Positions 29,785 through 59,812 of a stretch of 64,000 nt of DNA are shown here, one piece after another (within the stretch, counting starts at the first letter, position 1; each line of letters starts with the position of its first letter). This stretch comes from a virus (taxonomy: Duplodnaviria; Caudoviricetes): IMG/VR virus record IMGVR_UViG_3300020420_000671. One strand, 5' to 3'. The translations under genes were made by a program, and so were the position numbers. Under the pieces are notes generated by a model. The model made no database searches and was not told the origin of the DNA. It saw only the letters and a program-made list of their open reading frames with translations.

Positions 29785-30159
29785 ATGACTGAAACAAATT
29801 TACCAAGAAAACCAGATTCAAGAGATTCTTCAACAGTTGTAAAAAGATATTTTAATACCTACTACGGAAAAGAACTTGCTTTTCCAAGTAATGATGTTGA
29901 TGCTGTAATCGGCTTTTTAGAAAATAAAGGATTTGATAAATCTGCCGCACTCAGTACAGGAACAATATTATTAAAACAAGCAAAACTTGATGGTATCAAA
30001 GTATTTGAATTATTAGATACTTTGAAAGGTTTGGACAAACTACAATTAAGTTATACCGTTACACAGGTTTTAAATTTTAACAGACAAAAAATAAGCACTC
30101 TAGGATATAGAGTGACTGACACACGCAAGCCTACAGAATCCAGAAACATCATGGGGTAA
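29785..30159 (+). CDS. hypothetical protein in tail/head cluster
   Basis: ORF packed between structural genes. Confidence 0.6.
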   Translation: MTETNLPRKPDSRDSSTVVKRYFNTYYGKELAFPSNDVDAVIGFLENKGFDKSAALSTGTILLKQAKLDGIKVFELLDTLKGLDKLQLSYTVTQVLNFNRQKISTLGYRVTDTRKPTESRNIMG

Positions 30160-30162
30160 CCA

Positions 30163-30600: not shown

Positions 30601-30606
30601 TAAATA
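30599..30606 (+). promoter_or_regulatory. putative late promoter GATAAATA
   Basis: Overlaps gp4 stop, before small terminase-like gene. Confidence 0.55.
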
Positions 30607-30632
30607 ATAGTAGCATATAATGGATTCAAGCT

Positions 30633-31121: not shown

Positions 31122-31138
31122 TTTATAAGGACGGGAAT

Positions 31139-31702
31139 ATGTTTGAAAAATACCTAACAGAAGCAAAAAAAGAGTACAAATTTTCAATTGGTGTGGCAGG
31201 AGAGCTACCAGAAGGTTTTGCTGATTCTATGGAAACAGCATTACAACGTTTTAACGTTGTGTCAATGAGCCCAGGTAAGAAAACTCCTATACAGGAAAAA
31301 CCACTGGATTTTCCACAACTTTCAAACAGCGAAGTCACATACTATGAAGCAACATTAACATATCCGACAACACCACAAGTATTGTCAGAATACATTCCAC
31401 AGTGCACTGATATCGAAAGAGCTAGTATTATTGTGCGTACCGAGAATGATCCTGCTTTAGAGTACCAATCACAAAAAGAAGAAGACCCATATCAACCAAA
31501 ACTTGATACAGAAGATATGGGACAAGCTGTACCAAACGCACAGGAAACTGTTGGTGGTGAAAGAGTTATGAGTCTTTTGAAAGAATTAGAAACAGCTAGA
31601 AAAGAAACAGAAAACAGTCCAATAGCCGATGTCAAACCAGCACCAGAGAGCAAAGACATAAGCGACAATATTGGAACTAAATCACCGATAGGGAGTAAGT
31701 AA
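31139..31702 (+). CDS. putative head/virion protein
   Basis: N-terminal YLTE/A possible prohead-protease site; late box upstream. Confidence 0.5.
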   Translation: MFEKYLTEAKKEYKFSIGVAGELPEGFADSMETALQRFNVVSMSPGKKTPIQEKPLDFPQLSNSEVTYYEATLTYPTTPQVLSEYIPQCTDIERASIIVRTENDPALEYQSQKEEDPYQPKLDTEDMGQAVPNAQETVGGERVMSLLKELETARKETENSPIADVKPAPESKDISDNIGTKSPIGSK

Positions 31703-31703
31703 T

Positions 31704-32732
31704 ATGAATATGAAAGATATGATTCAGCAGATGACAGACATCGAAACTGAAGCAAAATCAAAAAAACAACAAATTAATGAAGCGGCATCAATGAACATTT
31801 CTATGACTGCTGATGATGCTGGACAAGTTGGACAGCTAATGTCAATGATGAAAAACGCAGGAATGAATCCTAAACCAGTAGGCGGAGATATGCCTATGCC
31901 AATGAGACATGACATTGATAAATTTAGACAAGCTGTAGACGCAAAATATGATGATCCAAAAATTCCAGGCAAAGACGATGTGCCAGGAGATATGGATCTT
32001 AAAGCAGGTTTACTTGGAAAAGGTTTAGCGGCAACAGGCGGAGCAGTAGGACTAGATGCTTTAGACAAAGCAACTGGTGGAGTAGGATCAGACATGGCGG
32101 CAACAGGAGCAGGAGCAGTTGCTGATTTAGTAGTACCTGGATCAAGTGCTATTGTTAAACCAATCGCAAAAGCCATTGCGCCAAAAGTAGCAGGAGCAAT
32201 AGGTGGAGCGGCTTTGGCTGACGATGAGACAAAAGAAGGCGATTATGCTAACGCACCAGACGAGGATTATGCTCCATACACAGACGTTATTAAAACAGGA
32301 AACGATCTTAACAAATCTAAAAAATCTTATCCAAAGGTAGCAGGCGGAGATAATCCTATGAATCTAGCAGATAAGATTAAAGAAGAGCTATCTGCTTTGT
32401 ACAAAGAATACCAAGTACCTGAAGAAGGTTACGCTAACAGACAACATCAAGAAATTGGTGATCAAATGTTTGTGTTTGCTCAGGAAATCAAAGACGGAAA
32501 ACATAGTTACGATTACATACTTGACGAGTTAAACAGCATGTTTGATATGGTTAAAAAATCCGGTGATAAAGTTTATATCAACGCATTCAAGGCTCTAAGG
32601 GGAATTCAACCTGAGGACGTTGGTGATGATAAAGACGGTGGTATGAATCAAAGTATGTCTAAGGCACAAGATGCTATTGATATTTTAGACGGTGCCGACG
32701 ATAGCGACTATCCACACATGGGCAAAATGTAA
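31704..32732 (+). CDS. putative internal head protein with glycine-zipper segment (paralogue A)
   Basis: Acidic; INE/AASMNISMTADD; DDPKIPGKDD; Gly/Ala hydrophobic stretch. Confidence 0.5.
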   Translation: MNMKDMIQQMTDIETEAKSKKQQINEAASMNISMTADDAGQVGQLMSMMKNAGMNPKPVGGDMPMPMRHDIDKFRQAVDAKYDDPKIPGKDDVPGDMDLKAGLLGKGLAATGGAVGLDALDKATGGVGSDMAATGAGAVADLVVPGSSAIVKPIAKAIAPKVAGAIGGAALADDETKEGDYANAPDEDYAPYTDVIKTGNDLNKSKKSYPKVAGGDNPMNLADKIKEELSALYKEYQVPEEGYANRQHQEIGDQMFVFAQEIKDGKHSYDYILDELNSMFDMVKKSGDKVYINAFKALRGIQPEDVGDDKDGGMNQSMSKAQDAIDILDGADDSDYPHMGKM

Positions 32733-32925
32733 AAATGAAGATGCGTGAACTTTTAAATAAGATGGACGCAATTGACACACCAGTCAATGAAGCCGCTTCA
32801 ATGAACATCAACATGACAGCAGATGATTGTAACGAAGTCGGCGAACTAATGAAATTAATGTCCAACGCTGGACTTACTCCAAAACCTTTATCAGCTACCA
32901 AAAAAGATGATCCAAAAATTCCAGG
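31950..32925 (+). repeat. 20-bp identical direct repeat GATGATCCAAAAATTCCAGG (31950-31969 and 32906-32925)
   Basis: Read directly; part of the paralogous duplication. Confidence 0.85.
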
Positions 32926-33100
32926 AAAAGATGACGTTGAAGGTGATAAAGATCTTCAAGCAGGAATGCTTGGAGGTATAGCAGGAGGATTAGGCGGTAG
33001 TGCATTAGGAACAGCTTTAGGCGGTCCAATAGGCGGTATAGTTGGTAGTATAGCCGGCGGAGCACTAGGCGATAAAATTACCGGCGACGGCATAGTATAA
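32735..33100 (+). CDS. putative internal head protein with glycine zipper (paralogue B)
   Basis: VNE/AASMNINMTADD; DDPKIPGKDD; GGIAGGLGGSALGTALGGPIGGIVGSIAGGALG. Confidence 0.55.
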   Translation: MKMRELLNKMDAIDTPVNEAASMNINMTADDCNEVGELMKLMSNAGLTPKPLSATKKDDPKIPGKDDVEGDKDLQAGMLGGIAGGLGGSALGTALGGPIGGIVGSIAGGALGDKITGDGIV

Positions 33101-33122
33101 TTCCCCCAAAACTTTGCGAATC

Positions 33123-33150
33123 AAATAGGCTCTCCGGAGCCTATTTTTTT
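33123..33150 (+). terminator. intrinsic terminator
   Basis: AAATAGGCTC-TCCG-GAGCCTATTT followed by T run. Confidence 0.85.
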
Positions 33151-33152
33151 GA

Positions 33153-33159
33153 GTAAATA
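33153..33159 (+). promoter_or_regulatory. putative late promoter GTAAATA
   Basis: After terminator, 7 nt before terminase ATG, no SD. Confidence 0.55.
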
Positions 33160-33166
33160 GTTTACT

Positions 33167-34753
33167 ATGGTTAAAAGTTTAGATGGCGTATTAACAAAAA
33201 AAGCCAACACAAGAGAAACATTTACAGAAGAGCAGATAGCTGATCTACAGGCTTGTGCTGATCCAAAAAATGGATATCTGTATTTTTGTCAAAAATTTTT
33301 TAACATTCAACATCCTGTAGCAGGTAAGATGTTGTTCGAACCATTCACATATCAACAAAAACTTTTAAACAGTTATCACGAACATAGATTTAACATTAAC
33401 ATGTTACCAAGGCAAAGTGGTAAGACTACAACTGCCGCCGGATATCTATTGTGGTTTGCTATGTTTCATCCTGATCAAACTATACTTATAGCGGCACACA
33501 AATACACAGGTGCCCAAGAGATCATGCAGAGGATTAGGTACGGTTATGAACTATGTCCTGACTTTATAAGAGCAGGAGTTGTCAATTACAACAAAGGATC
33601 AATGGAGTTTGAAAATGGTAGTAGAATTGTTAGTGCTACAACTACTGGAAATACTGGTAGGGGTATGTCTATTAGTTTACTTTATTGTGACGAGTTCGCG
33701 TTCGTAAGTCCAACTATTGCTGATGAATTTTGGACTTCCATATCTCCAACACTAGCAACAGGTGGTCGTGCTATTATTACATCAACACCTAATTCTGATG
33801 AAGACACATTTGCTGTAATTTGGAAAGAAAGTCAAAATAAATTTGATGCTAATGGTAATGAACAAGAAGTAGGTATGAATGGTTTCCATGGATTTACCGC
33901 TAAATGGGACGAACACCCTGATAGAGATGATGAATGGCGAGAAGCAGAAATAGGCAGAATAGGCGAAGAAAGATTTAGACGAGAATATGGCTGTGAATTT
34001 TTAGTTTATGATGAAACGCTTATCAACAGCATAAAACTTTCTACGCTCGAGTCCATTACTCCTAAAATGAATATGGGCCAAACACGTTGGTATGAAGATA
34101 TCAAATCTTCCGAAAATTATGTAGTAGCATTGGATCCTAGCATGGGTACAGGAGGTGACTTTGCGGCCATACAGGTTTTTGAAGTTCCAAGCTATAAGCA
34201 AGTTGCTGAGTGGAGACATAACGAAACTCCAATTCCCGCACAAATTAGAATACTTAAAGACATCTGTCAACATCTAAAAGATAATTGTAAAAATACTGGA
34301 ACAAATATCTACTGGAGCGTTGAAAATAATGCTATAGGAGAAGCGGCACTGATAGTAATTAACGACTACGGAGAAGAAAATATACCAGGACTTTTTATCA
34401 GTGAACCAATGCGTAAAGGTCATGTACGTAAGTTTAGAAAAGGATTCAACACAACACACGGCACCAAAATTACAGCTTGTAGTAGACTAAAAACAATGGT
34501 TGAAAATGATAAAATACAATTGAATAGTGCGGCTCTTATAACTGAGCTTAAGAATTACGTGGCAACAGGCACCAGTTTCAAAGCAAAAGTAGGACATACA
34601 GATGATCTAGTGAGTGCGACATTGTTAGCATTACGCATGATGGCTGTTTTGAAGGATTGGGATCCTAGAATATACAATTCCTTCAGTCAAGCTGAAGGTG
34701 AAGAGCCATTTGAACCCCCTATGCCTATATACGTTACAGGCGGTTTAGGATAA
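33167..34753 (+). CDS. terminase large subunit (gp17-like)
   Basis: LPRQSGKTT Walker A, LYCDEFAF Walker B, STPN, ALDPSMGTGGDF, DDLVSA nuclease motifs. Confidence 0.95.
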   Translation: MVKSLDGVLTKKANTRETFTEEQIADLQACADPKNGYLYFCQKFFNIQHPVAGKMLFEPFTYQQKLLNSYHEHRFNINMLPRQSGKTTTAAGYLLWFAMFHPDQTILIAAHKYTGAQEIMQRIRYGYELCPDFIRAGVVNYNKGSMEFENGSRIVSATTTGNTGRGMSISLLYCDEFAFVSPTIADEFWTSISPTLATGGRAIITSTPNSDEDTFAVIWKESQNKFDANGNEQEVGMNGFHGFTAKWDEHPDRDDEWREAEIGRIGEERFRREYGCEFLVYDETLINSIKLSTLESITPKMNMGQTRWYEDIKSSENYVVALDPSMGTGGDFAAIQVFEVPSYKQVAEWRHNETPIPAQIRILKDICQHLKDNCKNTGTNIYWSVENNAIGEAALIVINDYGEENIPGLFISEPMRKGHVRKFRKGFNTTHGTKITACSRLKTMVENDKIQLNSAALITELKNYVATGTSFKAKVGHTDDLVSATLLALRMMAVLKDWDPRIYNSFSQAEGEEPFEPPMPIYVTGGLG

Positions 34754-34756
34754 ATA
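34749..34756 (+). promoter_or_regulatory. putative late promoter GATAAATA
   Basis: 5 nt before ATG 34762. Confidence 0.55.
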
Positions 34757-34761
34757 TTAAT

Positions 34762-37374
34762 ATGAAAAACCTTGAATACATAGCAGACGAGCTTTTTAAC
34801 AAAATTAGAGGAAGATATCCTTCTGTTACTGTTGGTGACAATGACGCAACAATAACAAATATGCCAAAACAAGGCAGATTCTTTGAATTTGATTTCCAGC
34901 CAGGAAAAAAGGTAAGTATAAGTTTAGATGAGGATGGTATTGCTGTAATGTACAGCACTAAACTGTTTGATTCAAACGATGCCAGTTTAAAAAGTAACTG
35001 GTTCCGTTTTTTAAAAGAACTTAGACTGTTTGCTAAAAAGAGAATGTTAAACTTTGATACAAGAGATATTACAAAAAACAGTTTAGACAAAAGAGATTAT
35101 GAATATCTAAGCACGGAGAAACAAATGAGCGAATCGAAACTATACGGAACGAGCAGAACCAGTTTTCAAGACATTGGTTCAGCTAAAATGATTGTGAAGC
35201 ATTCACAGCCGATCAATAGAGAACAACCAGCAGGTAGAACAAGAGACATTGCTGGAATATACATTGAAAGTGAATCGGGAGAAAGATTTAAATATCCTAT
35301 GAAACACTTGAACGGAGCAAGGGCTATGTCCATGCACGTTGCCGAAGGTGGAACACCATATGATGACTTTGGTAAACACATCATCGGTCTTTCAGAAGAA
35401 CTATCCAAGCTAAGAAAATTCAAAACTTACATGAATCGCTCAAGTGTAATGGCTGAAGGACTTGCTGGCTATATGGATATTGTAAACGAAAGAATTGAAG
35501 CTGTAAAGAAAACGACACATGCGTTACAGTCAAAAGCAAAATACCAAGAAGCATTTAAGAACTTTGATAATACCGTGCTTGAAGAAGTTCCAGAAGATGT
35601 TTCAAACAGCTGGATTGACGAACTAACAATCAAACAGTTTAATGAAGAGCTCAAAGGTGTCTTTCCGTACATTTACAAACTTGTTAGTGAAGCAAACAAG
35701 GTTAAAGATCTTGGTCCAGAAGATTTGATAGGCGAAGGATTTGATCCTCAAGAGTTTAAAGGTGTGATTAAAGGATTTGAAGTATCCGGAGATGATGGTG
35801 AAGAAGAAGGAGCTGACATCCATTATACTGCTAAAATTGTAGATGGTAAGCCAGTAGTGGATCCAAAGTCAATTAAAGTACACGCATACGGTAATAATCC
35901 AAGTAGTAAATTAGGATATGACGTGGACAATGATACAGATATGATTATGAATTATGGTGGTGTAGACGCAGAAGAAATACTACGTTCAGCTCAAGAAGAT
36001 GCTGAAGAAGAATGGAATAATAGAGACAACAAATATGCCCATGGTGAAGATGTTGAAACCGAAGGTGCGGTAAAAGGTATGGTCATGGACATGGAAGACG
36101 ATGCGGCTGACATGTCAAGAGACGAATTCATTGAAAAATATGGAAGAGGTTATGCTGATATTTGGGATAAGGTAAATGACGAAGATTACATGGATCCGGA
36201 TTACATGTCACCAGAAAGCTATGATTTTGAACCAATCGCAGACGATATTATAAGTGGAGCAAAGTTCAATCAAGAAACACCAATGACAGAATATGAAAGA
36301 GCTTTTGAAGATTTTAAAATGGCGGCGGCCAATGCGGCGGCTAAAGGCGAAAAAGACTTTGAATATCCAAAAGGATCAGGAAAGAAACATCCAACCAAAA
36401 TGGATAAAGCAACAGCGGCAAAACTATTAGCTGACAGCCAAACCAACGAAGATGACGCAATCGCATTAGGTACTGTAGGTAAAAAGTATCTCGGTATGTA
36501 TAAAACCCATGGAGCAGATTACCTAGCCCAAGTGTTAAAAATGGACAAAGCAACATTTGGAAAAGAAATGGTAAAGGCTGATGGTGATCCAGCAAAATTA
36601 ATTCAAAACTTCCTTTCTAAAAGAGGATTCAACGAAGCACAACAGCTTGACGAATTGGCATTTCTTCCTTTCTTAATTCCGGCGGCGTCGGTAGCTATGA
36701 GGGGTCTTATGAATCCAGCGGTTAGACAAGGAGCAATGAAGGGCGGTAAAGCTGTAGTTGGTTGGGCACTGAAAAATCCAGTCAAAGCAACAGTCGGCAC
36801 AGCGGCCGCGACAAATCCTATAGATACCAAAAATGCAGTCGTAGGAGCAGTAGATGGTGCTAAAAAATTAAAAAAAGGAATCGACGATGCCGGCGAACTA
36901 GTTCAAAACGCAAAAAAAGCGGTTAGTGATATTGGTAACAAGATTCCAACCAAAGATGATTTAATCAAGCTACTTCCTGGTGTACCTAACTTAGGTGGAC
37001 TAGCATCAATAGCAAGACAATATGCATTGCCTGCGGCAGTAGTAGCGGCTTTGGCACTTGGCGGAGTAGCGGCATATAAAAAACTTTTTGGTGGAAAAAA
37101 AGAAGGTGATGATCAGGATACAGTAGATCTAAGTCCAAAAGGACAAGGTGACGAACTGAAAGGTCCACAAGAAACACCTTTAGATGAATTTGTGAAAAGC
37201 ATGTATGATTATACTCAAAATGCTTTTCCAAAAGGTGAAACAGCAGTATTAACTTCTGTACAGAAGAAGTATGGAGATAAAGCTGTTCCCGAAGCTGGTA
37301 AGATGATTGACGAGCTTTTAGCTGGTCAAGATAGTGAAATGGCAAGAATTCAAGCACTTGCTGGACTAAGATAA
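34762..37374 (+). CDS. putative multi-module internal head protein (870 aa)
   Basis: Late box; repeated xxE/(A,G,S) sites; acidic modules; two hydrophobic segments; C-terminal ARIQALAGL. Confidence 0.5.
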   Translation: MKNLEYIADELFNKIRGRYPSVTVGDNDATITNMPKQGRFFEFDFQPGKKVSISLDEDGIAVMYSTKLFDSNDASLKSNWFRFLKELRLFAKKRMLNFDTRDITKNSLDKRDYEYLSTEKQMSESKLYGTSRTSFQDIGSAKMIVKHSQPINREQPAGRTRDIAGIYIESESGERFKYPMKHLNGARAMSMHVAEGGTPYDDFGKHIIGLSEELSKLRKFKTYMNRSSVMAEGLAGYMDIVNERIEAVKKTTHALQSKAKYQEAFKNFDNTVLEEVPEDVSNSWIDELTIKQFNEELKGVFPYIYKLVSEANKVKDLGPEDLIGEGFDPQEFKGVIKGFEVSGDDGEEEGADIHYTAKIVDGKPVVDPKSIKVHAYGNNPSSKLGYDVDNDTDMIMNYGGVDAEEILRSAQEDAEEEWNNRDNKYAHGEDVETEGAVKGMVMDMEDDAADMSRDEFIEKYGRGYADIWDKVNDEDYMDPDYMSPESYDFEPIADDIISGAKFNQETPMTEYERAFEDFKMAAANAAAKGEKDFEYPKGSGKKHPTKMDKATAAKLLADSQTNEDDAIALGTVGKKYLGMYKTHGADYLAQVLKMDKATFGKEMVKADGDPAKLIQNFLSKRGFNEAQQLDELAFLPFLIPAASVAMRGLMNPAVRQGAMKGGKAVVGWALKNPVKATVGTAAATNPIDTKNAVVGAVDGAKKLKKGIDDAGELVQNAKKAVSDIGNKIPTKDDLIKLLPGVPNLGGLASIARQYALPAAVVAALALGGVAAYKKLFGGKKEGDDQDTVDLSPKGQGDELKGPQETPLDEFVKSMYDYTQNAFPKGETAVLTSVQKKYGDKAVPEAGKMIDELLAGQDSEMARIQALAGLR

Positions 37375-37405
37375 CCAAAATACCAGAAAAAGTCAAAAAA
37401 AACAC

Positions 37406-37434
37406 TTGACTTTATAAATATTATCGTGTAGTAT
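37406..37434 (+). promoter_or_regulatory. sigma70-type promoter TTGACT-17-TAGTAT with embedded late box TATAAATA (37413-37420)
   Basis: Intergenic, before SSB gene. Confidence 0.75.
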
Positions 37435-37442
37435 GTAACTTA

Positions 37443-37478
37443 TGTGCTACGCGATTAGGCACAATACAAAGGCTAATT
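37443..37478 (+). promoter_or_regulatory. candidate H-type RNA pseudoknot in the SSB mRNA leader
   Basis: S1 UGUGC/GCACA, S2 GAUUAG/CUAAUU, zero-nt central linker, just before SD AAGGAGG. Confidence 0.45.
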
Positions 37479-37493
37479 TAAAGGAGGCTTATT

Positions 37494-38468
37494 ATGGCAA
37501 CATTAGCAGAAATCAGAGCTAAACTGAAAGAACAAGAATCACGCACAGGTGGTTCACAAAGCTCCGGCGGGGACAACGCAATTTTTCCATTCTGGAATAT
37601 GAAAGAAGGCGAAAGTTCAACACTTCGTTTCCTTCCTGATGGTGATGAATCAAATACATTTTTCTGGAAAGAACGTTTGATGATCAAACTGCCTTTCGCA
37701 GGTGTAAAGGGTGAGACTGACTCTCGTCCAGTACAAGTACAAGTTCCTTGTATGGAAATGTATGGTGATAGCTGTGAAATTCTTAACGAAGTTCGTGGCT
37801 GGTTTAAAGATCCAAGTCTTGAAGACATGGGTCGTAAATATTGGAAGAAGAGATCATATATCTTCCAAGGATTTGTAACTGAAAACGCATTAAGCGATGA
37901 TACAACTCCTGAAAATCCAATTAGACGTTTTATTATTGGTCCACAGATTTTCCAAATCATCAAGCAGGCTCTTATGGATCCTGATATGGAAGAACTGCCA
38001 ACAGATTATACTGCTGGTTGTGATTTCCGTCTTAACAAAACTACAAAAGGCGGATATGCGGATTACTCAACTTCAAGTTGGGCAAGACGTGAGCGTCCAT
38101 TAAGTGATGCTGAAATGAAAGCCATAGAATCAAATGGTTTATTCAACTTGCCAGACTTCCTTCCGAAGAAACCTTCCGAAGTAGAAGTCAAAGTGATGAA
38201 AGAAATGTTTGAAGCGAGTGTCGATGGTGAAGCATACGACATGGATCGCTTTGGACAATACTTCCGTCCAGCTGGTATGTCTGCTAGAACAGGTGACCCT
38301 GTTGCTCAAAAGGCGGATACTAGCCCAAAGCAGGCAACGGCTCCAGTAGCAGAGACTCCCGTAGCAGAGGCTCCAAAAGCTGAAGCGCCGAAAGTTGAAG
38401 CAACAGCTCAACCAAGTGGAAAGGCAGAAGACATTCTTTCCATGATCAGAGCAAGACAACAAAACTAA
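37494..38468 (+). CDS. single-stranded DNA-binding protein (gp32-like)
   Basis: STLRFLPD, FFWKER, C.EMYGDSC, RKYWKKRSY, RFIIGPQIF, GCDFRL.K..KGGYADYSTS. Confidence 0.88.
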   Translation: MATLAEIRAKLKEQESRTGGSQSSGGDNAIFPFWNMKEGESSTLRFLPDGDESNTFFWKERLMIKLPFAGVKGETDSRPVQVQVPCMEMYGDSCEILNEVRGWFKDPSLEDMGRKYWKKRSYIFQGFVTENALSDDTTPENPIRRFIIGPQIFQIIKQALMDPDMEELPTDYTAGCDFRLNKTTKGGYADYSTSSWARRERPLSDAEMKAIESNGLFNLPDFLPKKPSEVEVKVMKEMFEASVDGEAYDMDRFGQYFRPAGMSARTGDPVAQKADTSPKQATAPVAETPVAEAPKAEAPKVEATAQPSGKAEDILSMIRARQQN

Positions 38469-38477
38469 AAATATATA

Positions 38478-38501
38478 CTTGTGGGGTTAATCCCCCACAA
38501 G
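38478..38501 (+). other. 9-bp RNA hairpin between ssb and uvsX
   Basis: CTTGTGGGG-TTAATC-CCCCACAAG, no U tract. Confidence 0.6.
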
Positions 38502-38519
38502 GCTATTTAAGGAGGTATT

Positions 38520-39578
38520 ATGGCAAAGGCATTTGATCCAAGTAAATTCAGAACGGCACTTACAAAAAGCATAACAGGCATGAGTGCTGGTTTTAATGAT
38601 CCAACAGATTGGATCTCAACAGGAAATTACGCATTAAACTATTTGGTTAGCGGAGATTTCCACAAAGGCGTTCCACTAGGCAAGGTAACTGTATTCGCAG
38701 GTGAATCCGGTTCAGGTAAATCTTATTTTTGTGCTGGTAACATTATTAAGGCGGCACAAGAACAAGGAATCTTCGTTGTATTGGTAGATTCAGAGAACGC
38801 ACTAGATCAAGACTGGTTAGAAAGACTTGATGTACAAACTAGCGAAGATAAACTATTGAAACTTAATATGTCAATGATTGATGACGTAGCAAAGACAGTT
38901 TCAACATTCATGACAGACTACAAAGCTATGAATGAAGAAGAACGTCCTAAAGTATTATTTGTAATTGATTCTTTAGGTATGTTGTTAACTCCAACAGATG
39001 TTGATCAGTTCCAAAAAGGTGATATGAAGGGTGATATGGGTAGAAAGCCTAAGGCACTTACATCGCTTGTTAGAAACTGCGTTAACATGTTCGGTAGTCA
39101 TAATGTAGGATTGGTAGCAACAAATCATACGTATGCTTCGCAAGATATGTTTGATCCAGATGATAAGATATCAGGTGGACAAGGATTTATCTATGCTAGT
39201 TCTATAGTTGTAGCTATGAAAAAACTAAAACTAAAAGAAGATGAAGACGGTAATAAAGTCAGTGACGTCCGTGGTATTAGAGCGGCTTGTAAAGTAATGA
39301 AAACAAGATATGCTAAACCTTTTGAAGGCGTACAGGTTAAGATTCCATATGAAAGAGGTATGGATCCTTACAGTGGACTTGTTGACTTGTTTGAAAAACA
39401 AGGATTACTTGTCAAAGATGGAAATAGGCTAAAATATATTGATGGAAAAGGCGAAGAGCATAAAGAATATCGCAAGAACTGGACAGGTGAAATGTTAGAT
39501 ATGATTATGTCTAATTTAAACGCCAAAGATGATTCTGTGGTAAATACCAAGGTCGAAGAACCAGCTGAAACAGAATAG
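38520..39578 (+). CDS. uvsX: RecA-like recombinase
   Basis: ISTGNYALNY, GESGSGKS, VDSENALD, IDSLGML, GDMGRKPK, SGGQGFIYASS. Confidence 0.92.
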   Translation: MAKAFDPSKFRTALTKSITGMSAGFNDPTDWISTGNYALNYLVSGDFHKGVPLGKVTVFAGESGSGKSYFCAGNIIKAAQEQGIFVVLVDSENALDQDWLERLDVQTSEDKLLKLNMSMIDDVAKTVSTFMTDYKAMNEEERPKVLFVIDSLGMLLTPTDVDQFQKGDMKGDMGRKPKALTSLVRNCVNMFGSHNVGLVATNHTYASQDMFDPDDKISGGQGFIYASSIVVAMKKLKLKEDEDGNKVSDVRGIRAACKVMKTRYAKPFEGVQVKIPYERGMDPYSGLVDLFEKQGLLVKDGNRLKYIDGKGEEHKEYRKNWTGEMLDMIMSNLNAKDDSVVNTKVEEPAETE

Positions 39579-51975: not shown

Positions 51976-52816
51976 TTTATGGACAGATAACGGTGCACTT
52001 AATTCTAAACCTATTTTTACTGCCTTTGCTACTAGCCTTCACAATAACGGCCACTCTGTTCTGTATAATGATATGGCTGGGGATATCCATGTTATTTGGA
52101 GTGTATTATGGTATGGTCGTATGGCTCCAAACAAAACTGTATGGGACGAAGCACAACGACAAGGAAAGCCAGTAATAGTATTAGAAGTAGGTGGTATCAA
52201 AAGAGGTACTACTTGGAAAGTTGGACTCAATGGTATTAATAGAGAAGCAAACTTTGGTCCAATGGGCAATGATGACTCTCGCGTTCGTAAGTTAGGACTT
52301 ACGTTAAAACCTTGGAAATTTAATAATGAGTATGGTGATATAATCATAGCATGTCAACACGCACACAGCCATCAATGGAGAAATCAAAAATCCGTACAAA
52401 CATGGGTGTTTGATTCTATTGACTTACTTCGACAACATACCAATAGAAAAATTATAGTAAGACCACATCCAAGAAGTCCTATTCCTGGCATTCAAAACGA
52501 ATTTAAAAATGTTATATTACAAGTTCCCTCTCAGATTCCACAAACGTATGATGACTTTGACTTTGATCCTAGTAACGCTTATGCGGTAGTAAACTGGTCA
52601 AGTAATCCTGCTACGCAGGCCGTGATTCAAGGAATACCTGTTTTTGTAGGTCCAGATAGTTTAGCATTTGATGTAGGTTGTACAAATCTTGCTAGTATCA
52701 ATGGTCCTGTAATGCCAGACAGAACACAATGGTTGAATGATATTGCTTATACTGAATGGACTTTGGAAGAAATTGAGCAAGGAATTCCTTTAAAACGCTT
52801 GACATCTAGCTTATAA
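51950..52816 (+). CDS. KpsC/KpsS-like GT-B transferase-like protein D
   Basis: VLEVG, IIIACQ, VRPHP (HP motif), VNWSSNPATQAVIQGIP, WLNDIAYTEWT.EEI. Confidence 0.55.
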   Translation: MKNIGMKFSLWTDNGALNSKPIFTAFATSLHNNGHSVLYNDMAGDIHVIWSVLWYGRMAPNKTVWDEAQRQGKPVIVLEVGGIKRGTTWKVGLNGINREANFGPMGNDDSRVRKLGLTLKPWKFNNEYGDIIIACQHAHSHQWRNQKSVQTWVFDSIDLLRQHTNRKIIVRPHPRSPIPGIQNEFKNVILQVPSQIPQTYDDFDFDPSNAYAVVNWSSNPATQAVIQGIPVFVGPDSLAFDVGCTNLASINGPVMPDRTQWLNDIAYTEWTLEEIEQGIPLKRLTSSL

Positions 52817-52827
52817 TCAAGTATAAT
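52799..52827 (+). promoter_or_regulatory. perfect sigma70 consensus promoter TTGACA-17-TATAAT
   Basis: Read directly; heads the uvsW-petB-kdsAB gene run. Confidence 0.88.
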
Positions 52828-52833
52828 ACAGAC

Positions 52834-54075
52834 ATGAAACAAGAAAATTGTGAAGGTCTATTATCTCTTCTAACAGGTATCACTATACCAAGGCCTGTCA
52901 TGCTGAAGGTATTGGACAACGGATATACGTTATTAGATGCGGATGCTAAAATACTTAAAAGCATAGCAAAGCAACTTTCAAAAGGAATTCCTTTAACTAA
53001 CAGACAGCATAGTTTAGTATTAGATAAACTAGAAAACTATAGAGATCAATTTATTAAAAAAGGAATTGACATTGATTTATATAAAGATAAATTGATGTAT
53101 CCATATAGGCAAATAGACAGATCACATACTTTAAAATTAGATAATGATAAATTAAAAATTAGATTTCCATTTAATAAAAAAATTATTGATAGGATAGAAG
53201 AAGTAAGACGTGTAGATAATCGTAGTCATGAATATAGTGAAAATACACATACTTTTAAATATACACCACAAACTTTAATGAAGTTAGTTGAGATAGCAAA
53301 AAAGTTTGATCACAAATTTGAGATAGATGAAAATGTTGAAGACATATATCAACAATGTTTAAAGTTTGAGGCAACTAAAGAGGAATATGTACCTGGTGTA
53401 TACAATTACAAAGTAAAAAATGTACCTGCCATAGTGAAAGACATGTTATTAGATGAAATAGGAGAGTGTAACAGAGATACTCTTCCGCTGTATTATGACC
53501 GTAGAGAACTTTTTGGATTGAAACATTTTGATATGGCAAAAATATCACAAAGCTATGCTAGATTATCTGTATTGACAAATAAAATAATACAACGTAAAGA
53601 TCCAACTATAGTATTACAAACAAAAACGCATACAATCGATCAGTTGGTACAATCACTTATGGAACTGAATAGGTTACCTATATTAATTGTGTTAGATGAT
53701 AAAAAAGCATTAGATCAATTGACTGTTTGTCATAATCATTTTAAAAACGTTATACATAGTTCTGAAATATCAGTTTGTTTTAGAAAACCAAATAATGAAG
53801 ATAGAGATCCTTTCAACGAAATGGTAAGTGAAAAAGGCATCAATAATCCGGTTGACAAAAATTCAAAAATAGTGTATATTAATAATAGTAAACTGCCTAA
53901 GCCGTTGTTACAGAAAGATTTTTCTCCTAGAGCTATTGTTAGTTTAGGAGGCCACATAATTGGCTTTAACAATGTAACAAACTTTATACAACAGTTTGAT
54001 CTTCAAATAGTATATGAAGATAACAGCTCATCAGTTTACTGGAACAAAAGATTAAGGAAGATAGTAAATGCCTAG
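52834..54075 (+). CDS. hypothetical protein preceding UvsW
   Basis: 413-aa ORF directly after sigma70 promoter, overlapping uvsW start. Confidence 0.65.
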   Translation: MKQENCEGLLSLLTGITIPRPVMLKVLDNGYTLLDADAKILKSIAKQLSKGIPLTNRQHSLVLDKLENYRDQFIKKGIDIDLYKDKLMYPYRQIDRSHTLKLDNDKLKIRFPFNKKIIDRIEEVRRVDNRSHEYSENTHTFKYTPQTLMKLVEIAKKFDHKFEIDENVEDIYQQCLKFEATKEEYVPGVYNYKVKNVPAIVKDMLLDEIGECNRDTLPLYYDRRELFGLKHFDMAKISQSYARLSVLTNKIIQRKDPTIVLQTKTHTIDQLVQSLMELNRLPILIVLDDKKALDQLTVCHNHFKNVIHSSEISVCFRKPNNEDRDPFNEMVSEKGINNPVDKNSKIVYINNSKLPKPLLQKDFSPRAIVSLGGHIIGFNNVTNFIQQFDLQIVYEDNSSSVYWNKRLRKIVNA

Positions 54076-55525
54076 TTGTAGGTTAATTATACAAGATGAA
54101 GTTAACATCAAAATAGATGGACTGCCTGTTGATGTAAGAAGAAAGATATCAAACGCACTAAAGTTTGAAGTGCCATATGCTAGATATATGCCACAATATA
54201 AACTAGGACGTTGGGACGGAAAAGTTGGCTTCTTTGGTCTTGGTGGTTCTGGTTACGTTAATCATCTTGATACAATCAATAGTGTTCTCCATAAATGTGG
54301 AGTACAAATAGATGAGATAGAAGATCAAAGACAAAAAATAAAATTAGATTTTCAAGCTATAAATGAAAACTTTTGGGCACATAAAACTTGGCCGAAAGGA
54401 CATCCTGCTGAAGGAGAAAAAATTATATTAAGAGATTATCAATTAGAAGTTGTTAATAACTTCTTAGCAAATCCGCAGTCGTTACAAGAAGTTGCCACAG
54501 GAGCAGGGAAAACAATTATTACTGCTACGTTAAGTAAACTCACAGAAGATTATGGACGCAGTCTTGTGATTGTTCCTAATAAATCCTTAGTAACACAAAC
54601 AGAAGAAGATTATGTAAACTGTGGATTAGATGTTGGTGTATACTTTGGGGATAGAAAAGAGCTTGGTAAAACACACACAATCTGTACTTGGCAAAGTCTA
54701 AACATATTAGATAAGAAAACTAAAGATGGTGAAGCAGTATTAACATTAGCAGAGTTTTTGGAAGGTGTATCAACAGTTATAGTAGATGAAGTACATCAAG
54801 CAAAGGCAGAAGTTTTAAAAAACTTATTGACACGCAACTTAAGAAATGCTCCAATACGTTGGGGACTTACTGGTACAATACCAAAAGAGAAATTTGAGTT
54901 TGAAGCTATACACGCAGGCCTTGGTCCCGTCATAGGACAGATAAGTGCTAAAGAATTACAAGACAAAGGTGTGCTGAGTGAATGTCACGTGAACATTGTA
55001 CAATTGATTGACACTCCGGTACATTCTAACTATCAAGAAGAATTAAAATATCTTGTGACAAATGATCCAAGAATAGATTACTTAGGCAAATTACTTAATA
55101 AAATCAAAGCATCAGGCAATACATTAATACTTGTTGACAGAATATCAGCAGGAGAAAAATTACAAAAATCCATACCCGGTTCACAGTTTGTGAAAGGCGA
55201 TGTAAAATTAAAAGACAGAAAGGAAGCATATGATGAAATCAATGAAGGTACTAATCATGTTGTTATTGCGACATATGGTGTGGCCGCCGTTGGTATTAAC
55301 ATTCCTCGTATTTTTAATCTTGTTCTCATTGAACCTGGAAAGAGCTTTGTGAGAGTAATACAATCAATAGGCAGAGGCGTAAGAAAGGCGAAAGATAAAG
55401 ACTTCGTACAGATATGGGATCTTACATCAACTTGTAAGTTCGCGAAGCGGCACCTTACTCAAAGAAAAAAGTTTTATAAGGAGGCGCAGTACCCATTTAC
55501 AATAGAAAAAGTAGAATGGAACTAG
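54068..55525 (+). CDS. uvsW: SF2 DNA helicase
   Basis: LRDYQ, VATGAGKT, VDEVH, GLTGT, GINIP, QSIGRGVR. Confidence 0.88.
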   Translation: MPSCRLIIQDEVNIKIDGLPVDVRRKISNALKFEVPYARYMPQYKLGRWDGKVGFFGLGGSGYVNHLDTINSVLHKCGVQIDEIEDQRQKIKLDFQAINENFWAHKTWPKGHPAEGEKIILRDYQLEVVNNFLANPQSLQEVATGAGKTIITATLSKLTEDYGRSLVIVPNKSLVTQTEEDYVNCGLDVGVYFGDRKELGKTHTICTWQSLNILDKKTKDGEAVLTLAEFLEGVSTVIVDEVHQAKAEVLKNLLTRNLRNAPIRWGLTGTIPKEKFEFEAIHAGLGPVIGQISAKELQDKGVLSECHVNIVQLIDTPVHSNYQEELKYLVTNDPRIDYLGKLLNKIKASGNTLILVDRISAGEKLQKSIPGSQFVKGDVKLKDRKEAYDEINEGTNHVVIATYGVAAVGINIPRIFNLVLIEPGKSFVRVIQSIGRGVRKAKDKDFVQIWDLTSTCKFAKRHLTQRKKFYKEAQYPFTIEKVEWN

Positions 55526-55526
55526 A

Positions 55527-56033
55527 ATGAAAATACTTACGTTAGAAAATAAACCTCTAGATCTAAACACGCTACCGGATCAAATAGAAGAGGATATAAG
55601 ATTTAGTATATTAGATAATTCAGATTCAAACAATCCTGATTTCTTTTATGTGCCTTTAATCTTTTTGGAATCTTTTAGTTCACCTAGTTGTGTTTTAGAT
55701 ATAGGAGGTTTTGAAGTCCAAATGCCTATAGATTGGCATATAGCAGTTGGATGTCCGGATAGCGGAAATGATATAGAAATATTGCCATTGACCAGCATAG
55801 GAGATAGAGGATTTGAAGCGTTCATTTTCAATCCACTGACCAGCTTCAAACCAGACTTTACTCCTGTAAAGGTAATTAATTATTATAATGATGTTAAATG
55901 GTACTTTCCAAAAGTAAGAAACGCACAACTTTTAAGTATACCAGTTGAAGAAAAAAATGAACCAATGTGTGCTTTCTTTATTAAGGACATTACTAGACAA
56001 ACAGAAGTTATCAAATACGGAGAATTGTTTTAA
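55527..56033 (+). CDS. hypothetical all-beta protein
   Basis: Coupled ORF after uvsW. Confidence 0.65.
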   Translation: MKILTLENKPLDLNTLPDQIEEDIRFSILDNSDSNNPDFFYVPLIFLESFSSPSCVLDIGGFEVQMPIDWHIAVGCPDSGNDIEILPLTSIGDRGFEAFIFNPLTSFKPDFTPVKVINYYNDVKWYFPKVRNAQLLSIPVEEKNEPMCAFFIKDITRQTEVIKYGELF

Positions 56034-56389
56034 TGAAAGCAGGAAAAATTTGGGGACAGACAGAGCTGATACACGCTAATGGTGTTTTAGAATTCCATAG
56101 AATAGAATTTAAGAAAGGTTTCAAGTGTTCTGAGCACGAACACAAATTCAAATGGAACGGTTTCTTTGTTGAGTCTGGCAAGATGATTGTCAGAGTTTGG
56201 CAAGATGATCAAGAAGGTTTGGTTGATGAAACTATTTTAAACGCAGGAGATTTTACACAAGTCAAACCCGGAAAGATACATCAGTTTGAAGGCATTGAAG
56301 ATGGTGTAGCTTTTGAACTATACTGGGCCGAATTCAATCATGATGATATCGTAAGACGCACAGTTGGAACCAAGGTCAAAAATGGATGA
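56033..56389 (+). CDS. cupin-domain protein
   Basis: GKIWG, CSEHEH..KWNGFFVESG, HQFEG. Confidence 0.7.
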   Translation: MKAGKIWGQTELIHANGVLEFHRIEFKKGFKCSEHEHKFKWNGFFVESGKMIVRVWQDDQEGLVDETILNAGDFTQVKPGKIHQFEGIEDGVAFELYWAEFNHDDIVRRTVGTKVKNG

Positions 56390-56646
56390 CCAAACTTATA
56401 CCAGGACAAGCTCTAATATACGAAAGAGCCAATGGTGTAACGTATGCTCGATATAGAGATCCTCCTCACAACATGATTGAACGATGGATCGTCGGCGGCG
56501 AACCTAAAGCAGTAGCAGAAGCAATGGGTATCATTGATTATGATGAATGGAAAGATATAATGATGACATCTGAAAAAAATGCTACCCTTAGAAAACTTAT
56601 TGACAAAGTAAGAACCACATACTACATTTTAAAAGAACCAAAATAA
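56386..56646 (+). CDS. hypothetical protein
   Basis: Coupled ORF; IYERANGVTYAR. Confidence 0.6.
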   Translation: MTKLIPGQALIYERANGVTYARYRDPPHNMIERWIVGGEPKAVAEAMGIIDYDEWKDIMMTSEKNATLRKLIDKVRTTYYILKEPK

Positions 56647-56661
56647 AACAGAAGGAAGAGT

Positions 56662-57948
56662 ATGGCTGATAAAGATTACAAACCAGTTAAGACAAATAAA
56701 GTAGGCGGATCTCCATTTACAGGAGTGCTAGGTTGGGTAGACGATCGACTGCCAATATTTCGTATGTTCAAATATGAATATTTAGATTTCCAAGTGCCTA
56801 GAAGTTTAAATTACTTTTGGAGTTTTGGAGGCATCCTAATGTTCTGTTTACTAGGACTTATAATCACAGGACTTACATTAGGAATGCATTACAAGCCTGA
56901 TGCTGAAAAAGCCTTTTTAAGTGTAGAACATATAATGAGAGATGTAAATTTTGGATGGTTACTGAGATATCTACATATGAATCTTGCTTCATTCTTTTTC
57001 ATCGCAGTTTATCTACACATATTTAGAGCAATGTATTTTGGTTCATATAAAGATCCACGGCAAGTGATGTGGCTTATAGGGATCACCATATTCTTCTTAA
57101 TGATGGCCACTGCTTTCTTAGGATATACATTACCTTGGGGGCAAATGAGCTTATGGGGAGCAACAGTAATCACAAGTTTATTCGGAGCAATACCTCTTGT
57201 AGGAGAAACTATTGTCACTTGGTTATGGGGAGGATATGCGGTTGACGATCCAACTATTAATCGATTCTACGTATTACATTGGTTAATTGCTTTTATAATT
57301 TTAGGTGTTGTAGTATTACATGTTATAGCATTACACATTGTTGGATCTAATAATCCATCAGGTATAGAGCCAAAAGATACTAGAGACACAGTATCATTCC
57401 ATCCATACACAACTGCTAAAGATATGTTTGGCATGGCAGTATTTTTTACAATCTTTGCTATGTTTGTTTTCTTTGTTCCTAACATACTAGGACATCCAGA
57501 CAATTATATTCCTGCCAATCCAATGCAGACACCTGCTCATATTGTTCCTGAATGGTACTTCTTACCTTTCTATGCTATATTAAGAGCTATCCCTGACAAA
57601 CTAGGCGGCGTGATTGCTATGGTTAGTGCTATTGGAATACTTGCTTTGTTGCCTTGGTTAGATAGAAGTAAAGTAAGAAGTTGTATATTTAGACCTTTAC
57701 ATCGACAATGGTTTATCTTATTTGTTTTAAATTTTATGATGTTAACTTGGGTTGGTGCTATGCCAGCCGAAGGATATTACATAACTCTTGGAAGAATCGG
57801 AACAGCATATTGGTTCCTATATTTCCTTGTAATAGTGCCGTTGAATAGTGTCCTTGAAAAACCTAAACCTATGCCTAATTCGATCCATGAATATTTAGAT
57901 TGGAAAAAACAAGGCAAAATTAAATCAGTATTTTCATGGATGAAATAA
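56662..57948 (+). CDS. petB: cytochrome b of the cytochrome bc1 complex
   Basis: NYFWSFGG; four heme His in LH-x13-H pairs (RYLH..YLH; VLH..VLH); [13 protein letters not shown]; PEWY; Qi ALH and PY...KD; single 428-aa chain. Confidence 0.97.
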
Positions 57949-58124
57949 TGGAGGAAGATTATCCTGACACAATAATATATGTAGATTCAGAAAGAGTTTG
58001 GTGTATGGGAGAAGACATGGATCACCCTAAAGTTTATTATACTGTACCTGAAGAAGGTTTTGTAGTTTGTGGCTATTGTGATATAAAATTTATGCGAAAG
58101 AAAAAGGAAGATGATAATGAATAA
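57936..58124 (+). CDS. zf-CHCC zinc-finger protein (NDUFS6-like)
   Basis: VWC.G....HPKVYY.......VCGYC = C-H-C-C arrangement. Confidence 0.75.
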
Positions 58125-58347
58125 GCCTAACACAACTTTTAAATTATCAATAAGAGATGTAGAAGTAATAGAACAAGCTCTTAGAAACAAAGCAGGAAGA
58201 AGAGGCATGGCTATAGCACAGGGAGATACATCACCAGAACTGAAAGCTGAGATGTATGAGATCCAAGATGTGCTTGGTAGAATACATGAACAGAAAAATT
58301 TTTATGCCAAATTCAAAGACGGCAAAACTCCTTATGTGAGCGGATAA
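58111..58347 (+). CDS. hypothetical protein
   Basis: Overlap-coupled ORF. Confidence 0.6.
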   Translation: MIMNKPNTTFKLSIRDVEVIEQALRNKAGRRGMAIAQGDTSPELKAEMYEIQDVLGRIHEQKNFYAKFKDGKTPYVSG

Positions 58348-59126
58348 TGAGAATTATAGCAGGACCTTGTCAACACGAAAGTATTTTAGAATCATTTGAG
58401 ATAGCATCTCATTGTAGAAGGATTTGTAAAGATTTAGGATTTGATTACTATTTTAAAGCAAGTTTTGACAAAGCAAATAGAAGCAGTAAGGACGGTATAC
58501 GCGGAATAGGTTTTGATAAGACAATGAAGGACTTTTACCTTATCAAAGAAAAACACGGTAACACTCTTAAAATACTTACGGATGTTCATACAGTAGAACA
58601 AGTAGAATCTATTAACAAAAACCACAGTGATGTAATAGACGTTTTACAGATACCTGCCTTCTTATGTAGGCAAACAGATTTAGTACAGGCGGCTTGTGCT
58701 ACTGGTAAAATAGTAAATATTAAGAAAGGACAATTTCTTGCTCCTTGGGACATCAAAGGCATCTTGTCTAAAACAGACGGTGCTAAAGAAGTTTGGATAA
58801 CTGAAAGGGGAACTAGCTTTGGATACAATACACTTGTTGTTGACTTTACCGGTCTTGACTATATGCTTAACAATTACGATAATGATATTATTTTTGATGT
58901 TACACACTCGGTTCAAAAACCAGGTGGTTTGGGTGGATCATCTGGCGGAAACAGAGAATACGTTCCCGGACTTGCTAGAGCAGGATCGGCACTAGGAATC
59001 AAAAACTTCTTCTTAGAAGTACATCGTGATCCAGACAATGCTCCTAGTGATGGACCAAACATGTTACACTTAAAAGATTTCGAAAGGACGATAAATGAAA
59101 TCAAAAGCTATTCTTATACCGGCTAG
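58347..59126 (+). CDS. kdsA: Kdo 8-phosphate synthase
   Basis: IAGPC, FKASFDKANRSS, TDVH, QIPAFLCRQTDL, NIKKGQF, ERG, FDVTHS, EVH..PD.APSDG. Confidence 0.95.
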   Translation: MRIIAGPCQHESILESFEIASHCRRICKDLGFDYYFKASFDKANRSSKDGIRGIGFDKTMKDFYLIKEKHGNTLKILTDVHTVEQVESINKNHSDVIDVLQIPAFLCRQTDLVQAACATGKIVNIKKGQFLAPWDIKGILSKTDGAKEVWITERGTSFGYNTLVVDFTGLDYMLNNYDNDIIFDVTHSVQKPGGLGGSSGGNREYVPGLARAGSALGIKNFFLEVHRDPDNAPSDGPNMLHLKDFERTINEIKSYSYTG

Positions 59127-59787
59127 GTTACACAGCACAAGGTATACTAATAAAATGCTTGTTGAATTAGATGGCAAGCCAATGATTAAACGTGTGTATG
59201 ATGCTTGTATGTCAACAGGTTATGATACATTTGTAATCACGGATAGCATGGAAATATTTTCTTTGTTTAATTCTGAAAATTGTTGGATAGAAGAAAAGCC
59301 ATATGAGAATGGAACGGCAAGATGTGCCGGAGCTATTTCAAATAGGTTTTTCAAAGCATATAATACTTTTATAAATGTACAAGGTGACATGCCAGATGTT
59401 ACACCTGAAATGATTAATCAATGTGTAGAATGGTTAAAATATTATTCAGTAAGTACAGTCTACACAACAATGCGGAAAGAAGAACAAGACAGACCAGAAA
59501 GCGTCAAAATGGTACGTGCTGGTGACAAGGCTCTTTGGTTTGGTAGAGGCATGACTGGTTATGGTGATTGGCATCTGGGTGTGTATGGATATAGACGAGA
59601 TGCTTTAGAAATGTATCCAAACTTAGAGATCCCAATTGAAGAAGATGTTGAGAAACTAGAACAACTACGTTGGTTAAAGAATGGCTGGGATATTGGTTGT
59701 TCACATGTTGAATTCAACGGAACCGAAATCAATACAAAAGAAGATATACACGAATGGAATTACAAGAATGGATTACTAAATGGTTGA
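59095..59787 (+). CDS. kdsB: CMP-Kdo synthetase-like cytidylyltransferase
   Basis: IPAR..STR..K, INVQGD, HLGVYGYR, EKLEQLRWL..G..I; INTKED in place of VDTxED. Confidence 0.85.
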   Translation: MKSKAILIPARLHSTRYTNKMLVELDGKPMIKRVYDACMSTGYDTFVITDSMEIFSLFNSENCWIEEKPYENGTARCAGAISNRFFKAYNTFINVQGDMPDVTPEMINQCVEWLKYYSVSTVYTTMRKEEQDRPESVKMVRAGDKALWFGRGMTGYGDWHLGVYGYRRDALEMYPNLEIPIEEDVEKLEQLRWLKNGWDIGCSHVEFNGTEINTKEDIHEWNYKNGLLNG

Positions 59788-59812
59788 CATTGAGCCGTAT
59801 ATGTATTATAAT
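59784..59812 (+). promoter_or_regulatory. perfect sigma70 consensus promoter TTGACA-17-TATAAT
   Basis: Read directly; 5 nt before ATG 59818. Confidence 0.88.

Follow-up and report, generated by a model that had tools for sequence, protein, structure and literature searches.

The closest described counterparts of the gene reported here are psbA and psbD of cyanophages, which encode the photosystem core proteins D1 and D2. D1 turns over quickly, the expression and function of phage psbA have been shown, and the photosynthesis genes of cyanophages have reshaped thinking on how viruses steer energy flow in the ocean. For viruses of the heterotrophs that dominate ocean respiration, such as SAR11 and SAR116, we know of no comparable respiratory-chain core subunit that has been characterised. 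Here we describe a full-length gene for cytochrome b (petB), standing without the genes for its partner subunits, in a 64,000-nucleotide stretch of viral DNA (IMG/VR record IMGVR_UViG_3300020420_000671; this whole stretch is called the window below). As with psbA and psbD, one host-derived, membrane-integral, cofactor-binding core subunit is carried by a lytic T4-type phage that does not carry the rest of the energy complex, and as with those genes there are signs of purifying selection and of exchange with hosts. Unlike them, the gene belongs to respiratory complex III of heterotrophic alphaproteobacteria and not to a photosystem, and it is known from sequence alone. Phage petB is probably a further auxiliary metabolic gene (AMG) of a category already known, that of core subunits of host energy complexes, and it points to a respiratory counterpart of the cyanophage genes. 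The analogy with psbA had been drawn in a preliminary description of this DNA; it gains support from lone cytochrome b genes in at least 75 viral contigs and from their apparent acquisition on several occasions.

Other parts of host electron-transport chains have been described in marine myoviruses of streamlined hosts. Pelagimyophages and cyanomyophages carry cytochrome c, alternative oxidase/PTOX, plastocyanin and ferredoxin, all of them soluble carriers or single-subunit oxidases that act alone, whereas cytochrome b works only as part of a complex of several subunits. For SAR11 myophages, the tabulated AMGs include cytochrome c and alternative oxidase (Table S5, PMC7029224); cytochrome b appears in neither the text nor the tables of that study. 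Cytochrome b itself has been recorded in viral-fraction metagenomes under the KEGG label K00412 ('CYTB, petB'), in the virome gene tables of Roux et al. (PMC3877843) and of Tsiola et al. 2023 (5 and 50 m samples; PMC10653327), but these are read- or contig-level labels with no genome context, phylogeny, partner-gene check or selection analysis. The predicted temperate Nitrosospira phage roc1 is likewise a phage-associated record with cytochrome b; it is reported to encode a complete bc1 complex (Fe-S protein, b and c1; preprint 10.64898/2026.05.02.722434). All three subunits are present there, in a predicted temperate prophage that also has many genes of central metabolism, as opposed to a lone b in a T4-core genome of the virulent type. 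The preliminary description knew of no characterised example. In the open-access literature we, too, found no dedicated study of phage cytochrome b, and the protein is not mentioned in the pelagimyophage study, in a paper on marine jumbo phages or in one on a long-read virome; what has to be added is that K00412 had already been entered in the two virome tables. The closest cellular form is the cytochrome b of the Pelagibacterales petABC (fbcFBC) operon, of the Candidatus Fonsibacter type, which is 73–75% identical over its full length and has the same domain order and catalytic residues. The cellular gene always lies between petA, for the Rieske protein, and petC, for cytochrome c1; the phage gene, in contrast, lies between phage open reading frames (ORFs) and overlaps a gene for a zf-CHCC protein.

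What kind of cytochrome b does the phage encode? The ORF is uninterrupted, and its translation contains PF00033 (Cytochrome_B; residues 42–226, E 9e-69) and PF00032 (Cytochrom_B_C; residues 284–385, E 7e-44). Since both domains lie within one polypeptide, the protein is of the unsplit bc1 type and not of the split b6/subunit IV type. Its closest solved relative is the cytochrome b of Paracoccus denitrificans (2yiu and 9fks), which aligns over the full length with E 1e-142. The four-helix N-terminal domain contains the two pairs of histidines that bind hemes bL and bH in this family, H105/H119 in helix B and H206/H220 in helix D, with 13 residues between the members of both pairs. At the Qo site, WGATVIT occupies residues 165–171 in the cd helix and PEWY residues 296–299; at the Qi site, H225, K253 and D254 are all in place. 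Judged by these features, the window gene is a long, unsplit bc1 cytochrome b that is predicted to bind heme and to assemble into an active quinol:cytochrome c reductase. The preliminary description had reported an intact bc1-type petB with these heme, Qo and Qi landmarks (K253 apart), as AT-rich as its surroundings, and both points hold (GC 35.4% in the gene, 36.1% in the window). Composition, whether GC or GC at third codon positions (GC3), does not discriminate between phage and host origin, both being AT-rich.

We are nearly certain that this cytochrome b is a real phage gene. A second IMG/VR record from a separate metagenome, L001, is collinear with window positions 54068–63899 at 87–100% protein identity and spans both junctions of the gene. 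Error-free pieces of Logan contigs from two unrelated studies (ballast water, 2025; seawater, 2024) also cross both junctions, the upstream one being bridged by X2 at 55812–56834 and X3 at 56161–56829, and the downstream one by X2 at 57161–58032; the stretch is present in sequencing runs of 14 studies. Phage genes therefore lie on both sides of cytochrome b in independent assemblies, which settles the question of chimeric junctions that had been raised earlier. The partner genes, which the preliminary description had found not to flank petB, were absent from the whole window when host PetA and PetC were used as tblastn queries, and from 75 viral loci, which were examined with up to 8 kb of flanking DNA. 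Likewise, the Rieske and Cytochrom_C1 profiles each matched 0 of 35 whole viral records (19–172 kb), and positive-control genomes were matched in the same runs. The order in Fonsibacter host loci is petA-petB-petC, and adjacency of b to c1 is reported to be universal in 135 complete Pelagibacter genomes (preprint 10.64898/2026.04.03.716430); the window gene has no such petA and petC flanks. Among GenBank phages, the sole cytochrome b match at the protein level is in Helicobacter phage Pt11470_1, and HTVC008M, Mosig and others have none. In that prophage-derived record (PQ159902.1, 35684–36736) the gene stands at the edge of the sequence, close to an rpe gene of host type, and is probably host flank.

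The arrangement is not confined to the window. A pattern scan of IMG/VR, a search that the preliminary description had called for, yielded at least 75 confirmed viral loci with a lone cytochrome b, at 53–97% identity. The neighbours in every examined clade are phage genes, among them class II and class Ia ribonucleotide reductase, T4 RNase H, primase, clamp loader, tail spike and a SegE-type homing endonuclease. None of the 66 full-length viral copies departs from the others at any heme, Qo or Qi residue, and none contains a stop or frameshift; in 115 cellular copies the same residues are invariant save for three single substitutions in WGATVIT, and the viral copies retain 88–91 of the 91 columns that are invariant across these cellular sequences. 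Pairwise ratios of nonsynonymous to synonymous substitution rates (dN/dS, Nei-Gojobori) are 0.008–0.094 for viral pairs and 0.019–0.050 for host pairs, and 0.025–0.053 for the window gene against its viral relatives. The least saturated pairs give 0.008–0.032, and between the window and L001 dN is 0.017 and dS 0.68. Relaxed selection, which had been named as a ground for discarding the gene, is excluded by these values (about 0.01–0.09, in the host-like range): purifying selection on the viral copies is as strong as in hosts. A functional cytochrome b is thus very probably kept by selection in phages.

Several small genes stand next to viral cytochrome b. In 27 SAR116-type viral loci (L037:2746–3147 and 26 others) a SegE-type GIY-YIG homing endonuclease gene lies directly downstream, and this enzyme could provide a route for gene movement between phages. 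An ORF of 62–63 aa abuts the cytochrome b start codon in L040 (7783–7974), in 26 SAR116-type loci and in L201 (4813–5001); its C-terminal half is nearly invariant, it matches no known family, and it is common to two very different cytochrome b clades. The L201 allele is 79% identical to the window cytochrome b. In L201 and L202 (P0041) the lone cytochrome b lies amid many tiny ORFs with GrpE-like, IMPDH-like and T5-type dNMPase genes, and the T5-type dNMPase suggests that the gene also occurs outside the jumbo-phage lineage described below.

From which hosts were these genes acquired? The nearest named cellular proteins to the window gene are the Candidatus Fonsibacter/Pelagibacterales cytochromes b introduced above; among 201 Pelagibacterales species genomes, seven reach 74–75% identity and the remainder 59–63%. 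In IQ-TREE phylogenies (a quick tree of 129 rows and a careful one of 79), the window clade (100/99) and the Fonsibacter-type group are sisters (95/93). Within that host group lie three freshwater-type viral loci, two viral-only clades branch near it, L025 and L026 group with HIMB59-type genomes, and SAR116 single-cell genomes form the sister group of a viral clade of 13 representatives (100* in the quick tree). The viral label requires at least four changes on the tree, and a single viral clade is rejected by the approximately unbiased (AU) test (log-likelihood difference 767, p 1e-4). As read from these trees, viral cytochrome b is polyphyletic and appears to have been acquired several times from different host lineages, the predicted donor of the window gene being SAR11 subclade-III-like (Fonsibacter-type) Pelagibacterales. 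One correction to the earlier reading is that the lineage of donor and host would be SAR11-subclade-III-like and not Rhodobacter- or Paracoccus-like. The window gene groups with a plausible host lineage, the zf-CHCC gene beside it points to the same lineage, and it is retained across relatives under purifying selection, as is fitting for an AMG. In L009, L010 and L029, viral cytochrome b falls inside the Fonsibacter clade at 83% identity and has a GC of 44% and a GC3 of 51%, as against 32% and 21–25% in Fonsibacter; this composition suggests long residence in a higher-GC phage genome.

The phage itself is a myovirus, with a block of hallmark genes (Table 1) and, by PHROGs, baseplate wedge and UvsW-like helicase genes. 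No match to the window DNA, or to positions 50000–64000 taken separately, was found among 50,697 GenBank phage records. By TerL and sheath, the nearest isolates are the jumbo myoviruses PA5oct, Phosso and Atu_ph07, not HTVC008M: TerL is 54% identical to that of PA5oct (287 kb) and 48% to that of Phosso, and the sheath identity is 38–41%. Sinorhizobium phage Phosso has a genome of 469 kb and Agrobacterium phage Atu_ph07 one of 490 kb; these nearest isolated backbone relatives differ from the window phage in that they have no cytochrome b match and infect Pseudomonas, Sinorhizobium and Agrobacterium. CheckV rates relatives of 155–172 kb as just 44–47% complete, and close cytochrome b alleles lie on contigs of 283 and 306 kb. 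Taken together, these comparisons indicate that the phage is an uncultured marine jumbo T4-core myovirus. A pelagimyophage of the HTVC008M type, with a genome of about 150 kb and an HTVC008M/Mosig backbone, is ruled out by the same TerL and sheath affinities, CheckV estimates and 283–306-kb contigs. Two further contigs are L200 (306,491 bp) and L199 (158,112 bp); on the larger one an allele 85% identical to the window gene lies amid methyl-, sulfo- and glycosyltransferase genes, from which the phage lineage would be jumbo-sized and the cytochrome b context shuffled between close relatives.

Related backbones carry different alleles. TerL and UvsW are 76% and 84% identical between the window and G204, and 61% and 66% between the window and G206; five further fragments (G205, G207–G210) gave no real UvsX or sheath match, and G205, G207 and G208 none for TerL or UvsW. 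Because G206 combines a SAR116-type allele with a window-like backbone, related phages appear to carry host-matched alleles, through either repeated capture or allele replacement at a retained locus. The latter route is supported by the small ORFs that adjoin cytochrome b across clades.

The host genes have a history of their own. Fonsibacter-type host cytochrome b clusters with HIMB59-type sequences (100/100), and monophyly of the Pelagibacterales is rejected for this protein (p-AU 8e-7 under LG+G4 and 2e-6 under LG+C20+F+G4), whereas PetC, encoded next to it, supports that monophyly and puts these genomes within the main SAR11 group (99/97). The loci compared were L076, L078 and L162–L168 against L079, L080 and the main SAR11 loci; the groups were named after the tree had been seen, PetC disfavours the alternative only weakly (p 0.096), and transfer could have run in either direction. 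All SAR11-like viral clades fall in the same cytochrome b superclade as the Fonsibacter and HIMB59 types. The host discordance may reflect a petB-only replacement in the host lineage, possibly by a phage-carried allele, with which it is compatible. A still bolder and distinctly tentative idea is that a pool of petB alleles circulates in both directions between streamlined marine alphaproteobacteria and their phages, that phages swap in the allele matching the Rieske protein and cytochrome c1 of their host, and that at least one petB-only replacement has taken place inside a host petABC operon. If this were true, phages would be vectors for the replacement of a core respiratory gene, and cytochrome b would be the respiratory equivalent of psbA.

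The gene that follows cytochrome b points to a second respiratory complex. The zf-CHCC protein (P0122) is similar to chain R of 8qby, which is the zinc-finger subunit in complex I of Paracoccus (E 9e-6), and to the mitochondrial NDUFS6/NUMM protein, a complex I accessory subunit (E 1e-5). Its gene comes directly after cytochrome b in L001, L002, L003 and L063; in G208, G209 and L014, which carry cytochrome b of other clades, it stands elsewhere in the record. SAR11 and HIMB59 have one copy per genome, and the phage protein is nearest to the Fonsibacter type, at 45–47% identity against 35–38% for others. Given the homology to NDUFS6, the phage would carry parts of two respiratory complexes, and the overlap of this gene with cytochrome b suggests that complex I is supported in parallel.

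We propose that petB is an AMG that provides complex III of the infected host with its core subunit, a reading that we consider probable, though by no means secure, as regards assembly and expression. Cotranscribed with adjacent phage genes, from a sigma-70 promoter of the host type, petB would yield an eight-helix protein that enters the inner membrane of the host and receives two b hemes. There it would pair with Rieske protein and cytochrome c1 made by the host, the genes for these partners being absent from the phage DNA examined, and would replace or add to host cytochrome b. Quinol oxidation and the proton-motive force could thereby persist through a long infection as host expression declines. 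The other subunits of the bc1 complex depend on cytochrome b for their stability, which would make it a sensible single subunit to supply. Furthermore, the occurrence of host-matched alleles (SAR11-III-like, HIMB59-type and SAR116) in related backbones fits a need to match the partner subunits of the host. By this proposal, complex III may become limiting in infected cells, some of the respiratory electron flow in the sea may run through viral alleles, and phages may shuttle core respiratory genes between host lineages. A contig of 194 nt from an RNA library is identical to the neighbouring cupin/ORF86 region.

Several points weigh against this proposal. The viral records are all fragments (CheckV completeness 3–47%), and the absence of petA and petC from the complete genome is likely, not proven. 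The best cellular identity is 73–75%. No substitution is common to independent viral clades, and no viral-specific or convergent change hinting at a special property was found. In two metatranscriptome runs, cytochrome b was covered just by short pieces of conserved motifs with loose ends, probably from other organisms. Lastly, we know of no fast turnover in cytochrome b like that of D1, and the protein is not known to be limiting or short-lived in such hosts.

Among the alternatives, it is conceivable, if unlikely, that the phage subunit retunes the host complex: once built into the bc1 of the host, perhaps as a heterodimer with the resident cytochrome b, it might alter electron leak, inhibitor sensitivity, supercomplex formation or regulation. 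Between the window's viral clade A and its cellular sister there are 20 fixed differences, including residues 123–126 (RAMYF versus RGLYY) just past heme ligand H119; at one position, S in 96% of cellular sequences, Q is found in the SAR116-type viral clade; and the co-carried NDUFS6-like gene hints at a broader manipulation of the chain. However, these changes are not common to independent clades, clade A retains all 91 of the cellular-invariant columns, no viral copy outside it has fewer than 88, and every Qo and Qi landmark is intact. The motif glycine whose mutation we take to be linked to Qo-inhibitor resistance is likewise unchanged in the window cytochrome b.

It is improbable that petB is mainly a mobile cassette, persisting through homologous recombination or homing between phages and hosts with little or no benefit to replication. 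The SegE-type endonuclease right after cytochrome b in the 27 SAR116-type loci would favour such movement, as would the differing genomic contexts of close alleles, the small ORFs that accompany the gene across clades and the conflicting histories of host petB and petC. Within viral clades, however, dS ranges from 0.7 to more than 2, near or at saturation, with a dN/dS of about 0.03, which implies long residence under selection at the protein level, and mobility alone does not explain why every catalytic residue is kept.

This retention also makes interference or decoy roles unlikely. We give little credence to a phage subunit that, in competition with the cytochrome b of the host, would block or divert respiration, whether as a dominant-negative protein or as a countermeasure in superinfection or abortive infection. 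The provision of just one subunit of an obligate three-subunit complex speaks for such a role, but intact heme ligands and Qo and Qi sites are not needed for it, and yet they are invariant in all 66 full-length copies under selection as strict as that in hosts. Even less plausible is a newly acquired passenger that does nothing for the phage; phage hyperplastic regions do collect host genes, and nothing more specific speaks for it, while the viral clades are deep, diverse and under strong purifying selection, with no disrupted copy among the 66. Scarcely credible, finally, is an artefact in which host DNA was joined to phage by misassembly or binning, or in which the gene is the host flank of a provirus: two clade-B records are labelled provirus by IMG/VR and the only GenBank phage match is probably such a flank, but both junctions of the window gene recur in L001 and in the contigs of two unrelated studies, 75 of 75 viral loci lack the petA and petC that are always adjacent in hosts, the neighbours match phage families in every examined clade (ribonucleotide reductase, RNase H, primase, clamp loader, homing endonuclease), and identity to any cellular copy found does not exceed 73–75%.

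The proposal that petB supplies complex III draws part of its expression scheme from the surroundings of the gene (Table 1). Its embedding among phage genes with a Shine-Dalgarno-like stretch and tight coupling, as first described, is confirmed: the upstream ORF stops 15 nt ahead of the cytochrome b start, and the downstream ORF overlaps the cytochrome b end by 13 nt. So, too, is the perfect sigma-70 promoter-like site, at 12 of 12 positions. Two such perfect sites occur in the 64-kb window, as against 0.08 expected from shuffles, and they flank a ten-gene block (52834–59787) that contains cytochrome b. A private promoter for cytochrome b was considered and rejected, the 10/12 site at 56600 not being kept in L001 and other loci having no conserved −35/−10 pair ahead of the gene.

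Table 1. Cytochrome b and other features of the window, with their positions and the basis of each assignment.
Feature	Position	Strand	Basis or remark
Phage-encoded full-length bc1-type cytochrome b (petB; 428 aa, P0001)	56662..57948	+	PF00033 and PF00032 in one ORF
Purine-rich Shine-Dalgarno-like stretch GAAGGAAGAG	56651..56660	+	Read from sequence; 1 nt between its end and the ATG
Perfect sigma-70 consensus promoter-like site, TTGACA-17-TATAAT	52799..52827	+	12/12 positions; putative start of the cytochrome b unit
Second perfect sigma-70 consensus site	59784..59812	+	Marks the beginning of the next unit
Upstream co-oriented genes (block)	52834..56646	+	Tightly packed or overlapping; Pfam/PHROGs matches
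Unknown 413-aa ORF	First of block 52834..56646	+	Co-oriented upstream
UvsW-like helicase	54068..55525	+	Pfam/PHROGs
phrog_11279	55527..56033	+	PHROGs
Cupin (phrog_7851)	56033..56389	+	Pfam/PHROGs
86-aa ORF	56386..56646	+	Co-oriented upstream
zf-CHCC protein (62 aa, P0122)	57936..58124	+	PF10276, E 1.5e-11; 13-nt overlap with the cytochrome b stop
78-aa ORF accompanying viral cytochrome b	58111..58347	+	No Pfam/PHROGs family match
KdsA-like (DAHP_synth_1) and KdsB-like (CTP_transf_3) genes	58347..59787	+	Pfam, E 1.9e-50 and 2.6e-22
Phage hallmark block: tail sheath, tail tube, TerL, gp32-like single-stranded-DNA-binding protein, UvsX	24022..39578	+	PHROGs; window is a myovirus

Homologues of the 78-aa ORF adjoin cytochrome b in L001, L004 and L201. 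Ahead of cytochrome b in L008 (about 1840–1890), a tRNA-3'-end-like sequence (GGTTCGAGTCC...CACCA), read by eye, stands immediately before the gene. Host-like genes around the window cytochrome b encode a cupin, KdsA, KdsB, glycosyl- and methyltransferases, a 2-oxoglutarate-Fe(II) oxygenase and peptide deformylase. A surface-glycan block (40269–52816 and 58347–59787) includes an FkbM methyltransferase, two GT8 glycosyltransferases, KdsA, KdsB and a cytidylyltransferase fused to a mannose-6-phosphate-isomerase-like domain; Pfam detected no KpsC/KpsS-like transferases in it. Among the structural genes there are three paralogous tryptophan-halogenase-like genes (2135–3592 on the plus strand, 16060–17541 and 17541–19043 on the minus strand; phrog_2928, E about 1e-101 each), and positions 7642–13605 encode a huge virion structural protein of 1987 aa (phrog_5838, E 5e-247).

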